From Candidatus Hermodarchaeum yapensis (GTDB lineage Archaea > Asgardarchaeota > Hermodarchaeia > Hermodarchaeales > Hermodarchaeaceae): DNA of 64,000 nt. Made by a program: the position numbers and the translations under genes. Positions 42,390 through 49,866 of this stretch are shown piece by piece. The notes under the pieces were generated by a model that saw only the letters and a program-made list of their open reading frames with translations, ran no database searches and was not told the DNA's origin. The DNA is taken from the NCBI GenBank assembly GCA_016840405.1, contig JAEOSK010000001.1, positions 94,820 to 158,819 on the forward strand. The letters are read 5' to 3'. Position 1 is the stretch's first letter, and each line of letters begins with the position of its first letter.

Positions 42390-42682
42390 GAAGTACCCGC
42401 CTCCTATCCTATTTCACGTCATTCCATAAAAATCCTATTTTAAGTCGGCACCGAATTATTCACCCTTTCTTCTTCACAGTTAATCTTTGATTTCAGGAAT
42501 TCCATTCATCGAAGGATTCTGAACGCCATCTCGCTGCACTCAAGTTTATTTTCAGAGCATCTTTCGTTGAAGAGTTAAAAAACTCAACACCTCTTGGGCA
42601 CTAGTGACATTCGAGTAATGAATTGAACATCGCACTCAAAGAATGTGTAGAAGTATTGCGCGCGCAAAATCAGAGTGTGCCT

Positions 42683-42768
42683 AGCCGCTCACTCGCTCTA
42701 GGTAACTATGATAGTTCATCCCGCAAGTGCGGTCACACAAATGCCTTCCTGTCATCGCGTGAGCGACC
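42683..42768 (-). ncRNA. Dual-guide C/D box sRNA predicted to target LSU rRNA helix 69 and the segment just downstream
   Basis: 10-bp terminal stem; boxes C GCGAUGA, D' GUGA, C' GGGAUGA, D UAGA; guides complementary to conserved rRNA CAAAUGCCUU and GGUAACUAUGA; TATA-like TTTATTT ~25 nt upstream. Confidence 0.82.
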
Positions 42769-42842
42769 AATGGATTTTCAGCTTATCGATGCAAATAAAC
42801 CTGCCGATGCACAGTGGTCTTGATATTAAGACGTGTGCTATC

Positions 42843-44267: not shown

Positions 44268-45565
44268 TTTTATTAAAAAATTGGGAGATGATCCCGTCCT
44301 TCAAGGTGGGGAGGGAACGCGGAGTTCAAATACCCTATTGCCAACTTTAGAGATATGCTCAGAACCTTCCGGTATCGCCTCTACCCCAATCAAACGCAAC
44401 GTGCGCGAATCCGGAAGAACATCGACGCCTGTCGGTTCGTCTACAACTGGGCTCTGGAAATTACAAAGACTGCCTATGAGAAAGATGGGTCCAACCTGCG
44501 TTGGTTCGACTTGAACAACCGCCTTATCGAACTGAAGCAAGGCTACCCCTTTCTCAAAGATGCTTACTCCCAATCCCTACAACAAGCGGTTAAGCGGCTC
44601 AACCTAGCTTTCCAATATTTCATGCGCCACGTCTCGCAGGGTAAGGAACAGCCGGGCTATCCGAAGTTCAAGCGACGCAAGGCGCACCGACAGTCCTTTG
44701 ATGTTCCCCAGTTTTTCACCATCGACATTAACACTCAGCGCGTTTAGCTTCCAAAGATTGGAGCGGTTAAGGCAGTCTTCCATCGGCGGTTCTCTGGTAC
44801 ACCAAGAATGTGTACGGTTGTTTCGACCCTTACGGGTAAATTCTTCATCTCGATTGTAGTCGACGATGGAAATCCTCCTCCCCCTAAACCACAGGCGACG
44901 AACCAGACGTCGATCGGGATTGATGTGGGTCTGACGACCTATGTTACCATGTCCACCGGTGAAAAGGTAGAAAATCCTCGCCATCTACAAAACACACTGA
45001 AGCGTCTCCAGTGCCTGCATCGAAGGTTGAGCAAAAAAGTAAAGAGGAGTCGAAACCGGGAAAAAGCGAGACTGCGACTGGCCCGCTGTTACGAACGGGT
45101 TACCAATCAACGAGCTGATTTTCAGCAGAAGCTTTCGACGCGGTTGATTCGCGAGAACCAAGCGATTATAGTCGAGAGCCTTAACGTCAAGGGCTTGATG
45201 CGTAACCAGCGTCTGTCCAGGGCGATTGCCGATGTAGCTTGGTCGCGGTTTCTGGCGATGTTACGGTATAAGACCGAGTGGTATGGGGTAACGTTGATTG
45301 AGGTAGGGCAATTTGCACCCACGTCGAAGCGCTGTCATGCCTGTGGGTACCTCAATGAAGGGCTCACGTTATCGGACAGGGAGTGGACCTGTCCCTCCTG
45401 TCTTTTACCACTGGATCGGGATGTCAACGCCGCAAGAAATATTAAGATGATAGGACTTGGGTCCATCATTACACCGAGGGAACCTCGGGAAGAGCCTGTG
45501 GAGCTGTCAGCACTGGCTGAAGCGTCGAAGCAGGAAACTCCAACCATCAGGGCGGAGTAGTTCAC
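44268..45565 (+). mobile_element. IS200/IS605 (IS1341-like, tnpB-only) element, copy A
   Basis: Left hairpin CCCGTCCTTCAAGGTGGGG, tnpB, right end ending TTCAC at 45565; closely similar to copy B. Confidence 0.9.
44355..45560 (+). pseudogene. tnpB: TnpB with premature TAG at 44745-44747
   Basis: MLRTFRYRLYP N-terminus; GIDVGL, VESL, DRDVNAA intact; the TAG aligns with TGG in copy B. Confidence 0.92.
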
Positions 45566-45607
45566 TAACCACTCTTAATTGTCCTTGATCATCCTCAAGG
45601 CTCGGTG

Positions 45608-46144
45608 ATGACGGTGTCTGAAAAAGCATCCAAAACGAAAACGAAGACCACATCAAAAAAAGATGCTAGCAAGCCAAAGTCCAAATCTACCAGTAAACCA
45701 AAAGCAAAGGCAAAGGCGAAAACCACGAAAAAGCCTACGACGAAGAAGGCTCCGAAAAAGCCTACGACGAAGAAGGCTCCTAAAAAGACCACGCCGAAGA
45801 AACCTAAGAAAAGGCGCAAAACCAAAACCACCGTTGAGGCAAAACCAAAAAGAACACGTCCACGAAGGTTGCCATTGGAAACTCCAGTCAAAGGCGTTTT
45901 AATGAACTATCAACGAGGATCCGTTCGACAAAGAAACCAATACGGTTTGATCCAGCTTCAAGGTGTTTCTTCAATTTCTACAGCGGCCTCCTATATCGGT
46001 CGATCAGTCATACTCCATTTCAATGAACGAACCCAAAACCAAGGTCAAATCGTTTCAGTACATGGTAAGAAGGGCGTGCTCAGAGTGCGATTTCGCCGAA
46101 GGCTAGCCCCAGAAGCTTTGGCAAAAGAGGTTGTTGTCTTCTAA
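45608..46144 (+). CDS. rpl35ae: 50S ribosomal protein L35Ae (eL33) with long Lys/Thr/Pro-rich N-terminal extension
   Basis: KGVLMNYQRG, AASYIGR, GQIVSVHGKKGVLRVRF. Confidence 0.88.
   Translation: MTVSEKASKTKTKTTSKKDASKPKSKSTSKPKAKAKAKTTKKPTTKKAPKKPTTKKAPKKTTPKKPKKRRKTKTTVEAKPKRTRPRRLPLETPVKGVLMNYQRGSVRQRNQYGLIQLQGVSSISTAASYIGRSVILHFNERTQNQGQIVSVHGKKGVLRVRFRRRLAPEALAKEVVVF
45728..45781 (+). repeat. 27-bp tandem repeat x2 encoding KKPTTKKAP
   Basis: AAAAAGCCTACGACGAAGAAGGCTCC(G/T) occurs twice in tandem. Confidence 0.9.
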
Positions 46145-46222
46145 ATCAGGGAAGATCCCACCAAAACCCCTCTTTCTAACAATTATCTCATTATACAAGG
46201 CCAATTCAAGCTAGAATACTAC

Positions 46223-47514
46223 TTTTTGTTTTAAACTGCGAGAAGACCCCGTCCTTCAAGATGGGGAGAAATCGCGGACTTCAAATACCATAGTAAAGAA
46301 CCTATAGACATGCTCAGAACCTTCCGGTATCGCCTCTACCCCAATCAAGCACAACGTACGCGAATCCGGAAGAATATCGACGCCTGTCGGTTCGTCTACA
46401 ACTGAGCTTTGGAAATCACAAAGACTACCTTGGAGACAGATGGATTCAAACTAAGTTGGTTCGACCTGAACAACCGCCTTATCAAACTGAAACAGAATCA
46501 TCCCTTTCTCAAAGAGGCCTACTCCCAATCACTTCAACAGGCTGCTAAGCGGCTCCACCTGGCCTTCCAACATTTCTTTCAGTACCTCTCGCAGGGCAAG
46601 GAACAGCCAGGTTATCCGAAGTTTAAGTGACGTAAGGCACATCGGCAGTCATTTGACGTACCCCAGTTTTTTACTATCGATTTTGTCGCTCAACGCGTAT
46701 GGCTTCCTAAGATTGGTGCGGTTAAGGCAGTCTTCCATCGGCGGTTCTTTGGTTCGCCAAGAATGTGTACGGTTGTTTCAACCCTCATGGGTAAATTCTT
46801 CATCTCGATTGTAGTCGAGGATGGAAATTCTCCTCCACCGAAGGTTACGGACCAGAAGTCGGTGGGAATCGATGTGGGTCTGGCGACCTATATCACCTTG
46901 TCCACCGGTGAGAAAGTGGAGAACCCTCGACATCTCCAAAATGCACTGAAGCGCCTTCGATGTCTACATCGAAGGCTGAGTAAAAAAGAACGAGGTAGTC
47001 GGAATCGGGAAAAAGCACGGCAGCGACTAGCCAGCTGCTATGAACGGATCGGTAACCAACGGGCTGTTTTTCAGCATAAGCTCTCGATGAGATTGATTCG
47101 CGAGAACCAAGCGATCATGGTCGAGAGTCTTAACATCGGTGGCTTGATTCGTAACCGGCGTCTAGCTCAATTGATCGCCGATGCAGCCTGGTCTCAGTTT
47201 TTAGCGATGCTACGGTATAAAGCCAAGTGGTATGGAGTAACATTGATTGAAATAGGGCGGTTTGCACCTATGTCGAAGCGTTGTCATGGCTGTGGGCACC
47301 TCAATGAGAGACTCACCATGTCAGATCGAACTTGGACTTGTCCAGCCTGTCTTTTACCACTGGATCGGGATGTCAATGCCGCAATAAACATTAAGATGAT
47401 GGGACTTGGGTCCATCATTACACCGAGGGAACCTCGGGCAGGGCCTGTGGAGCTGTCAGCACTGGCTGAAGCGTCGAAGCAGGAAACTTCGCCAATCAGA
47501 GCGGAGTAGTTCAC
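46223..47514 (+). mobile_element. IS200/IS605 (IS1341-like, tnpB-only) element, copy B
   Basis: Same left hairpin and TTCAC right end as copy A; direct orientation. Confidence 0.9.
46310..47509 (+). pseudogene. tnpB: TnpB with premature TGA at 46403-46405 and 46628-46630
   Basis: Single frame throughout; the stops align with TGG and CGA in copy A; RuvC motifs intact. Confidence 0.92.
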
Positions 47515-47585
47515 CTTACTTTAGCTGTAATTTTATTGAAATACTGACAGTAATAAGCCAGTACTGCTCAGTGGTTATCAAATGA

Positions 47586-47978
47586 GTGATGTCGTGGGTG
47601 CGTGATGTGATCAAGAATGAGAACAAGGTAAAACGCAAGGTTCAGCTAAAACGTGTGAACATAAAACCGCGAGAAGTAAAAGTACCAAAGGAGATATTGG
47701 AAAAGGTTGAGGAACTGGTGGCACAAAAGCAAGAACCTGACCTATCGGCTGATCAACAAGCCATTCTTTTTATTTGTGGGCGTGGACACCAATCGTTTGT
47801 TAGTATTCTCCAAGGTGTTAACAGCACACGGATTCCAATCGGAAAACCTCCGCTCGATGAAAAGACTGTGCGTTCTCTACTTCAAGAGTTGGAAAAAGAA
47901 GGTTATCTCACAAAAGCTGAAATCCAAGACCAACCCACATGGACAGCAACTGAAAAAGCTAGAGCTTTAGAAACTTAG
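47586..47978 (+). CDS. Hypothetical protein with C-terminal winged helix
   Basis: LDEKTVRSLLQELEKEGYL...WTATEKA wHTH pattern. Confidence 0.6.
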   Translation: MMSWVRDVIKNENKVKRKVQLKRVNIKPREVKVPKEILEKVEELVAQKQEPDLSADQQAILFICGRGHQSFVSILQGVNSTRIPIGKPPLDEKTVRSLLQELEKEGYLTKAEIQDQPTWTATEKARALET

Positions 47979-48053
47979 GCGGGTAGTCCGCTTTTGAAAC
48001 GGTCAATCCGGTTAGCTTCTAATGAAAAGCTAAAACGCGGAAAATCTTTTTTT

Positions 48054-48302
48054 TTAAAATTCTGCCGCAATTCGTTCGCCGTGTTCAGTCAAGAAATAGA
48101 AGGAATGATATACTCCTCGACGTTGCTCGACGAGCCCAGCGGAAAGCAGCCGTTTAAGATGATAGGCCGCTGTACTGGGGGGAATATCTAATGCCCGTGC
48201 AATATCGCGCAGGAATGTTCGTTGCCCATTAAGGGTTTGTAAAATTTGACGACGCGTACGATGACGCAACACTTTCTCAGTTAAAGGTGTCATACTTCTC
48301 AA
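48054..48302 (-). CDS. ArsR-like winged-helix transcriptional regulator
   Basis: TRRQILQTL, DIARALDIPPSTAAYHLKRLLSAGLV, YFLTEHG. Confidence 0.8.
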   Translation of the reverse strand: MRSMTPLTEKVLRHRTRRQILQTLNGQRTFLRDIARALDIPPSTAAYHLKRLLSAGLVEQRRGVYHSFYFLTEHGERIAAEF

Positions 48303-48399
48303 CCGTCCAGTATTACTAGCAACTCGGGTAGCAATTTAATCTATCCCCTTAAATATATACTTTGCGGCACAAATACGTACATGAATTAATTAACAATAA

Positions 48400-49866
48400 T
48401 CTTAATAAAAGAATCCGAAAATATTGGGAGTATCTGATATCTTGTAGGGTAAGTGTATGTAAAGGTTACAAATGAGTGGCCTATACTAAGCGTTCATTCC
48501 CTACAACTACTTATCCCCCTCTCTCCCATTCCTTAAATTACATGTCTGTGAATTGCCTAGTATACACAGGCTATCATCACCACGCGGCTTAGGTCTCCAT
48601 TCAACACATAGGAGGATATTCCACGCACTTCACAGAACGCATCCAACTACGACCCTCTCCTTACCTTTCCCATCTCTGTCACCTAGCGAAGAATCTGTAT
48701 AACTTGGCAAATTATTACATCCGCCAAAAGTTCATCCGTGAAGGTAGCTGGATACGTTACCGGGAGATAGATGTTCTTTTTTAAACCACCCCGGTGTACA
48801 AGCGCCTTCCTGCGCAGACTGCTCAACAGGTACTTCGATTACTTGATCAGAACTGGAAGGCATATTTCACAGCCATCAAGGACTGGCGAAAAAATCCTAA
48901 CAAGTATCTGGGTCGTCCAAGAATACCACGATATAAACCGAAAAATGGTGAGATCCTCGCGATATTTACAAACCAGCAGTGCCGAATCAAAAGGGGCTTC
49001 TTGTGCTTTCCTAAAAAAACCAAGTTAACGCCAATCAAAACACGAATCACCGAACTGTTTCATCAGGTCCGTCTTATACCGCGGGGTAATCATTACATTC
49101 TAGAAATCGTTTATGAAAGGGAACCTATTACTCTCCGATTAAAGAGACGACGTGTCATTAGTGTTGATATTGGATTGAATAATCTCGTAACTGTTGTCAA
49201 CAACGCGGGGCTGGCTCCCTGGCGCGTGAAAGGCGGGGGTGTGAAATCCATCAATCAGTACTATAACAAGGAGAGGGGACGACTGTGTTCTTGTAGAGAC
49301 AAACAAGGCCTCACAGGTCAAACACATCGACTCCAGCGACTACGATTGAAAAGAACTAACAAAATTACCGATGTCTTTCACAAGGTGTCACGGCGCATCA
49401 TCAAATATTGCATTTCCAATAATTTCGGACGTATCGTGATTGGGTATAATAAGACGTGGAAACAACAAGTGACATTGGGTCGAAAAAACAACCAGAATTT
49501 CGTGAGTGTGCCATTTCTAAAGCTTGTGAAGAAAATCCAATACAAAGCAGCAATAGTGGGAATTGAGGTGATTATGGTGGACGAAGGACACACATCGAAG
49601 GTGAGTTTTATAGATGGAGAAGAAATCAAGCCTCATCAAACCTATGTGGGCAAACGTGTGGGACGGGGATTGTTCCGAACCTCGAAAGGACTCATCATTA
49701 ATGCGGATGTAAATGGCGGATATAATATCGGCCGAAAAGCAGTCCCGGAAGCCTTTATGGTGGACGGGATAGAGGGTGTGGGGTTACACCCATATTCGGT
49801 GACCGTTTGATGCAAATCGGTAACAGAATAAAATAAGAATGGTTGAAATTTACTACTCTCGATAAC
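48400..49866 (+). mobile_element. Approximate extent of the third tnpB element
   Basis: Upstream inverted repeats (TTGTAGGG/CCCTACAA; AATGAGTG/CGTTCATT); 3' hairpins overlap the tnpB end and finish near GATAAC; boundaries estimated. Confidence 0.5.
48623..49810 (+). pseudogene. tnpB: Third-family TnpB (no zinc finger) with mutated start (ACG) and premature TAA at 48782-48784
   Basis: GGAGG (48611-48615), then ACG CAC TTC ACA GAA...CHLAKNLYN in frame with ORF 48794; SVDIGLNN, IVIGYNK, DEGHTSK, NADVNGGYNI. Confidence 0.88.

Follow-up and report, generated by a model that had tools for sequence, protein, structure and literature searches.

Box C/D sRNAs of archaea typically follow a compact plan, RUGAUGA - 12 nt - CUGA - linker - RUGAUGA - 12 nt - CUGA, contained in 50-70 nt. 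Helices 68, 69, and 71 are hotspots of archaeal 2′-O-methylation, and convergent evolution of the guides has been reported (Dennis et al., 2015; PMC4644070). The yeast modification table places Am2256 (snR63), Am2280/2281 (snR13), Psi2258/2260/2264/2266, m5C2278, and Gm2288 in the equivalent region (PMC5699541). The closest described archaeal guides are the crenarchaeal sRNAs IHOsR91 and IHOsR109 and Sac-sR125; our literature searches found no published catalogue of box C/D guide RNAs from Asgard archaea.

Multiple lines of evidence from rRNA complementarity, comparative sequence analysis, and gene neighborhoods suggest that the window (the whole stretch of 64,000 nucleotides of Hermodarchaeum DNA that was analysed) contains an autonomous gene for a dual-guide box C/D sRNA, predicted to direct 2′-O-methylation of A1938 and A1913 of the 23S rRNA; we put the probability of this reading at about 0.88. 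The gene lies on the minus strand and spans 42682-42769, i.e., ~88 nt including a closing U-A pair, with 42683-42768 as its core. The 86-nt string at 42683-42768 matches exactly the sequence quoted in the preliminary description of this locus, and the elements named there (a 10-bp terminal pairing, two GAUGA motifs, GUGA, CCGC-ACUU-GCGG, and UAGA) are all present on the minus strand. The features are collected in the table below.

Table. Features of the predicted sRNA gene and its flanks, in window coordinates.
Feature	Position	Strand	Details
TATA-like box TTTATTT	42793..42799	-	centred ~28 nt before the RNA's first G
Terminal helix, 5′ strand GGUCGCUCA, with K-turn C-stem CGC (42757-42759)	42757..42768	-	pairs with 42683-42696
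Box C K-turn	42749..42756	-	loop GAU 42754-42756, sheared GA 42752-42753, non-canonical-stem CAG 42749-42751
D′ spacer/guide GAAGGCAUUUGU, 12 nt	42737..42748	-	pairing core AAGGCAUUUG 42738-42747; N+5 guide nucleotide 42741
Box D′ GUGA	42733..42736	-	family-f1 homologs: NUGA throughout; sister genus: CUGA or AUGA
Internal hairpin CCGC-ACUU-GCGG	42721..42732	-	C-stem of the C′/D′ K-turn
Box C′ K-turn	42713..42720	-	loop GAU 42718-42720, sheared GA 42716-42717, ACU 42713-42715
D spacer/guide AUCAUAGUUACC, 12 nt	42701..42712	-	pairing core UCAUAGUUAC 42702-42711; N+5 guide nucleotide 42705
Box D UAGA	42697..42700	-	same position in homologs: CUGA (f4, f6, f18, f21), CAGA (g3), UUGA (f9), CCGA (f20)
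Terminal helix, 3′ strand	42683..42696	-	GCG (C-stem), AG bulge, UGAGCGGCU
Oligo-T run	42666..42669	-	14-17 nt past the helix

The anatomy of the RNA depends on the correct placement of the sheared GA pairs of its two K-turns. The preliminary description took GCGAUGA as box C and GGGAUGA as box C′, both degenerate and followed by 15-nt guides; comparison with homologs indicates that this reading is 3 nt out of register and that the spacers of both arms are 12 nt long once the K-turn GA is properly positioned. Most homologs have a GA whose end lies 15 nt before D′; in sequences of the present type it is the second GA of GAUGA. On the C′ side, NAUGA is placed such that its GA ends exactly 15 nt before D in 27 of the 28 homologs that have a recognisable D box, the sole exception (G017a) carrying a 2-nt insertion. 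In nearly all homologs, the 15 nt between GA and D or D′ thus comprise 3 box nucleotides plus a 12-nt spacer. The box C region of the homologs reads AAUGA, UAUGA, or canonical AUGAUGA; given that AT-rich lineages carry AAUGA or UAUGA, only the second GA is conserved, and in the lineages with canonical AUGAUGA it is the first GA that sits at the equivalent point. The equivalent of RUGAUGA in box C of the present RNA is accordingly AUGACAG (42749-42755).

In this register the terminal K-turn reads CGC-GAU-GA ... UA-GA-GCG, with the GA of both strands invariant in all family-f1 'a' copies, and the internal C′/D′ motif reads GU-GA-CCGC-loop-GCGG-GAU-GA. Moreover, the 4b-4n position covaries in both motifs (A-U, G-U, and G-C at C/D; C-G, U-G, G-C, and U-A at C′/D′). 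The alternative register, in which the first GA of GAUGA would be sheared, was rejected: it places G.G at 4b-4n of C′/D′ in 10 of 14 rows and requires 15-nt spacers. Both K-turns are accordingly predicted to be regular, in the stem-GAU-GA register and with canonical archaeal geometry. The departures from consensus are D (UAGA), D′ (GUGA), the 3′ halves of C and C′, which are not UGA, and a C.A at 3b.3n of the C/D motif; homologs have canonical AUGAUGA and CUGA where the present RNA departs from consensus in the 3′ half of box C and in the opening UA of box D. Unusual in the predicted structure are the length of the terminal helix (12-13 bp) and the C′/D′ motif, which forms a true K-turn and not a K-loop. 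The minimum free energy fold of the single sequence (z = -2.4) includes spurious pairing of the guides and is uninformative on the K-turns.

The 23S rRNA of this genome is represented by two partial, divergent copies, on contigs C17 and C60, both of which read GGGAGUAACUAUGACUCU ... GCCAAAUGCCUUGUCGG in the region of interest. The D guide core UCAUAGUUAC forms 10/10 Watson-Crick pairs with the helix 69 (H69) loop GUAACUAUGA and the D′ guide core AAGGCAUUUG forms 10/10 with CAAAUGCCUU, on the strand just after, so that the complementarity anticipated in the preliminary description is present in the organism's own rRNA. The first paired nucleotide of either arm is at position 2 upstream of D or D′; each complementary stretch, abutting its box, exceeds 9 nt and has its predicted target at N+5: the second A of GUAAC for the D arm (G000:C60:443, C17:651) and the third A of CAAA for the D′ arm (G000:C60:1164, C17:304), 25 nt apart in the mature rRNA. 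We take these to be A1913 and A1938, respectively, of Escherichia coli, in agreement with the published alignment ruler. The same region maps base-for-base onto the yeast modification series 2256-2288, and the yeast numbering proposed earlier (A2256, A2281) therefore holds. The numbering ruler in Additional file 3 of PMC4644070 is consistent with the A1913/A1938 assignment, and the two adenosines are those listed as Am2256 (snR63) and Am2281 (snR13) in yeast (PMC5699541), at the positions given in the preliminary description. Its choice of box D register is likewise borne out, the homologs carrying canonical CUGA at the same spacing (GUUAC-N-CUGA).

A genome-wide scan for the two-box layout returned 54 pattern hits; two rRNA matches of at least 10 nt were seen at the present locus alone, the next best having 8+8. 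Half-motifs alone (GAUGA-N-NNGA plus one 10-nt rRNA match) occur at chance level, with 68 real against 61 decoy hits; the signal thus resides in the two-arm pairing plus conservation. Taken together, the two-arm layout, the 10+10 nt of rRNA pairing, and the conserved structure uphold the original identification of a dual-guide C/D sRNA. Two other sequences came up in the genome. The first, G000:C75:1643, with an 11-nt guide to the G1945 site, was rejected as a second sRNA candidate: an ORF overlaps it, and only 1 of 12 same-genus genomes has it. The other comes from a search of the genome with the snoPyro_CD model (RF00095), which gave sub-threshold matches only: the segment G000:C16:10377-10418 (L083:1501-1542, minus strand) scores 25.8 bits and reads AUGACGA-12 nt-CUGA-AAUGG-UGAUGG-12 nt, with a 9-nt 23S match in the second spacer (GGACUGGAG) and no clear box D. 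This segment may be another C/D sRNA.

A blastn search recovered the locus from 13 of 14 genomes of the same genus and from 3 of 4 of the sister genus. Covariance model R1, which gives the present sRNA 108 bits, extends the family to 36 of the 151 sampled genomes of the phylum, in at least eight families, so that the Asgard homologs that the preliminary description proposed to look for do exist. Among close relatives the boxes, both guide cores, and the hairpin stem are invariant, whereas sequence differences occur in the hairpin loop and midway along the terminal helix. Changes on both sides are seen at 20 of 21 pairs and none of 500 shuffles reaches the observed covariation score, although the underlying alignment (A3) was fitted to model R1 and its pair counts lean towards structure; in slid controls the paired fraction drops from 83% to 32-47%. 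The long terminal stem and the internal hairpin pointed out earlier are thus real and covarying. The exchanges are nonetheless visible by inspection: variants of the hairpin stem include CCGC/GCGG, CCUA/UAGG, GGAC/GUCC, and GAGC/GCUC, and those of the C-stem across families CGC/GCG, CUC/GAG, UUC/GGA, and UCC/GGA; the sister genus has canonical GUGAUGA at C and CUGA at D′.

Furthermore, the guides change together with their targets in the two distant genomes in which the 23S rRNA is assembled (the 23S of G073, G077, G092, G134, G142, and G150 is not assembled). In G019, the H69 loop reads GUAACUAUAA and the sRNA guide UUAUAGUUAC, compared with GUAACUAUGA and UCAUAGUUAC in the present genome, such that a G to A change in the rRNA is matched by a C to U change in the D guide. 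In G053, the D′ guide CCGGCAAG complements that genome's own rRNA CUUGCCGG, the corresponding rRNA segment of the present genome being CUUGUCGG.

In two genomes of the sister genus, a tandem second copy lies directly upstream of the first (L021:1586-1689 in G015; L022:1578-1682 in G017). This copy has its own TATA box and keeps the D′ arm, with box D lost and, in one case, also C or C′; its features suggest either a duplicate in decay or a variant reduced to one arm.

With respect to genomic context, the sRNA lies in a divergent intergenic region, with a minus-strand glutaredoxin-like ORF followed by nrdD on one side and a plus-strand gene of the Asn-synthase family on the other. The ORF-finder start of the latter at 42708, which yields a 338-aa ORF overlapping the sRNA, was rejected and its first 45 codons (42708-42842) are spurious: relatives align from ATG 42843, the true start of a 293-aa protein. 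The sRNA differs from its close relatives by a 2-nt indel, which excludes a coding function on either strand. In other families the homologs adjoin unrelated genes, namely MtrH/HisG and Arf-like GTPases, and this variation of the neighborhood argues for an autonomous gene rather than an nrdD leader. A TATA box is found ~28 nt upstream in all lineages, as TTTAT(T/G)T at constant distance in every same-genus homolog and as a TTTTATAT-type box in other families; the oligo-T run is likely an archaeal termination signal, and the two elements together favor transcription of the locus. The GC-only, T/A-flanked palindrome GCGCGCGC lies 18-25 nt downstream of the sRNA, at window positions 42658-42665. 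It is kept at that distance in 6 of the 7 same-genus genomes shown and is not found in other families; it may belong to a terminator or serve as a site for the grx-nrdD promoter.

The position of the sequence between divergent genes, on the grx-nrdD strand, could also be accounted for if it were to regulate the flanking genes (glutaredoxin-NrdD or AsnB-like) in cis, as a conserved leader, operator, or attenuator, and encoded no guide RNA, and the palindrome ACUAU-C-AUAGU within guide 2 along with the conserved GCGCGCGC just downstream would fit such a role. Nevertheless, we consider this extremely improbable: besides the unrelated neighbors of the homologs, conservation of the palindrome extends to its rRNA-pairing part but not to its left arm, a TATA box and an oligo-T run belong to the RNA itself, and the guide covaries with the rRNA.

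An origin as a repeat or mobile-element end was rejected because blastn finds no second copy of the locus in the 2.7-Mb genome, despite near-matches to the guides in the vicinity of TnpB genes. These near-matches to the rRNA-sense complements of the guides (1-2 mismatches, at ~48798, 51236, and 56256) lie within or downstream of the TnpB region; they are due to chance and are not sRNA repeats. The TnpB-like ORFs occupy window positions 44355-49810 and comprise a split copy (44355-45560), a C-terminal copy (46763-47509), and a 338-aa copy (48794-49810).

The two arms of the guide RNA have had different histories. The D arm, directed at A1913, is present in every homolog, all of which keep AUAGUUA. 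The D′ arm, in contrast, differs in its target between lineages. In families f9, f18, f20, and f21 it reads ..ACAAG-N-AUGA or ..GCAAG-N-AUGA, with G1945 at N+5; in f4 it aims at G1940; in genus g3 the spacer is shortened and the guide is an orphan, the 23S stretch examined for G019 having no complement to it; and the f6 sequences are without GA in D′. Among the sampled Asgard homologs, the A1938-directed D′ arm is limited to family f1, to which the present genome belongs. By parsimony, the A1938 arm represents a family-specific re-aiming. The family shows one guide arm sliding along its target strand in the course of evolution (G1945, G1940, A1938), while the other stays fixed.

This asymmetry, together with the non-consensus GUGA of the present D′ box and the defects of D′ in g3 and f6, could indicate that only the D arm directs methylation, at A1913, and that the D′ arm serves as an rRNA tether or chaperone or is inactive. 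We regard such a division of labor as unlikely, given that the D′ guide core GGCAUUUG and the following NUGA are invariant over 16 family-f1 genomes, that the D′ spacer is exactly 12 nt with pairing from position 2, that the non-canonical-stem pair beside D′ covaries, and that Sac-sR125 and IHOsR109 place the same guide beside a D box.

The genome, an Asgard MAG, also encodes the core proteins that such an RNA would require, namely a Nop-domain protein (C18:6122-6793) and fibrillarin (C18:6955-7626), whose genes adjoin each other, and L7Ae (C30:36406-36678). Under the dual-guide model, a TATA promoter belonging to the gene itself would drive minus-strand transcription, and the RNA would fold such that the 12-bp terminal helix runs straight into a K-turn (C-stem CGC/GCG, loop GAU), where GA 42752-42753 and the GA of box D (UAGA) would form tandem sheared G.A pairs. 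A second K-turn would be built on the internal hairpin (C-stem CCGC/GCGG, loop GAU), GA 42716-42717 pairing with the GA of D′ (GUGA). L7Ae would be expected to bind both K-turns, with a Nop5 dimer and two fibrillarins completing the RNP. Each 12-nt spacer would then form 10 bp with the 23S rRNA, and the nucleotide opposite the fifth position upstream of D′ or D would be 2′-O-methylated, i.e., A1938 (yeast A2281) by the D′ arm and A1913 in the H69 loop (yeast A2256) by the D arm. Given that the targets are only 25 nt apart in the mature rRNA, the RNA may in addition hold this region together during folding.

The rRNA genes themselves show several peculiarities. In both 23S copies an intron lies inside the 25-nt linker between the two targets, at different points: that of C60 (G000:C60:458-1146, L002; ~696 nt) follows GACUCU and contains an ORF of 158 aa of the LAGLIDADG type (LLGIIDAEG, L002:576-1052), and that of C17 (minus strand, ~322 nt) follows CUUAAGGU. 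A 30-nt insert occupies the same linker in G019 (L074). Apart from their introns, the overlapping fragments C17:1-2838 and C60:1-2305 are set apart by several substitutions within a 50-nt stretch around H68/H69; they may be two diverged operons, or one of the contigs may derive from a related organism, the contamination of the bin being 4.4%. The 16S match G000:C71:619-4212 spans 3.6 kb against a model of 1478 positions, which implies large insertions or introns.

The present analysis thus delineates a well-supported Asgard sRNA family, with a covariance model and representatives in at least eight families, and leads to the prediction that A1913, a decoding-centre contact in H69, is 2′-O-methylated throughout this group, as it is in eukaryotes. 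A bolder extension, distinctly unlikely in our estimate, would hold that an H69-A1913 guide with an H70/71 partner arm is among the oldest traceable C/D guide RNAs, common to Asgard and TACK archaea and continuous with snR63/SNORD46, and that the RNA might also be an exon-bridging chaperone for the folding or splicing of intron-containing pre-23S rRNA. The chaperone role might apply because the arms bracket the 25-nt linker, a repeated site of rRNA intron insertion.

With regard to eukaryotes, the nucleotides modified with SNORD15/U15 or yeast snR13 (Am2280/2281) and snR63 (Am2256) are those predicted to be targeted here, and the SNORD15 consensus GGCAUUUGU-CUGA and the present GGCAUUUGU-GUGA share the same register. 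The preliminary description went further and saw in this RNA an archaeal antecedent of eukaryotic H69-region methylation guides; read as common descent, this would make it ancestral to snR63/SNORD46 and snR13/SNORD15. The identity of the targets, the alignment of guide and box with SNORD15, and the pan-Asgard distribution of the A1913 arm are all compatible with this proposal, but several observations render it quite improbable. The A1938 arm is confined to f1, whereas most other Asgard families and IHOsR91 aim at G1945; Crenarchaeota share the guides and the layout; and both the methylation hotspots in archaeal helices 68, 69, and 71 and the convergent evolution of guides are on record (Dennis et al., 2015). 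Furthermore, in Rfam searches at E up to 10, the sole match at the locus is SNORD15, at 9.7 bits (gathering score 75; E 4.4), covering box and guide only; no similarity to SNORD15 was found outside these elements, the SNORD46 and snR63 models gave no match at the locus, and the whole 64-kb window yielded no Rfam match at gathering score. Judged by its extent, the SNORD15 match confirms the eukaryotic register of the guide and is no evidence of common descent. Structurally, the eukaryotic counterparts are two separate, longer snoRNAs, in contrast to the single dual-guide RNA found here. On present sequence evidence, the locus therefore appears to encode a genuine, conserved dual-guide box C/D sRNA of an established RNA class, not a demonstrable ancestor of eukaryotic guides, and the picture of snoRNA origins is unchanged since crenarchaeal sRNAs already show the same sites and layout.

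The closest of these, IHOsR91 of Ignicoccus hospitalis (PMC4644070, Additional files 1 and 3), has the same layout and order of the arms as the Asgard RNA. Its D′ arm, ..CGGCAAGC followed by CCGA, pairs with the 5′ strand of H71, and its D arm, ..AGAGUUACG followed by CUGA (..GUUACG-CUGA), lies on the H69 loop with the second A of GUAAC at N+5; the sequence is nearly identical to the Asgard homologs of family f18 (AAACCGGCAAGA followed by AUGA, AUUAUAGUUACG followed by CUGA). Compared with IHOsR91, the present RNA has its D′ arm moved 7 nt upstream, to A1938, a much longer terminal helix, and a true C′/D′ K-turn on a 4-bp hairpin in place of a short linker. Because the shared sequence is the guide itself, this likeness fits homology as well as convergence. 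Sac-sR125 of Sulfolobus acidocaldarius and IHOsR109 (PMC4644070) carry the guide AAGGCAUUUGU directly before the D box (CAGA and CUGA, respectively) and hit A1938 in the same register as the present RNA. They differ from it in being compact (57-65 nt), in the swapped order of the guides, with that for A1938 on the D arm, and in the other arm, which pairs with the 5′ side of H69 and addresses a different nucleotide from the D arm described here. Relative to the generic archaeal box C/D sRNA, the present RNA retains only the RUGA half of C/C′ and the GA of D, and it is set apart by the terminal helix of 12-13 bp, the C′/D′ K-turn instead of a K-loop, and the length of ~88 nt; it conforms to that class in the two K-turn motifs, the 12-nt spacers, the N+5 rule, and the closely set rRNA targets.
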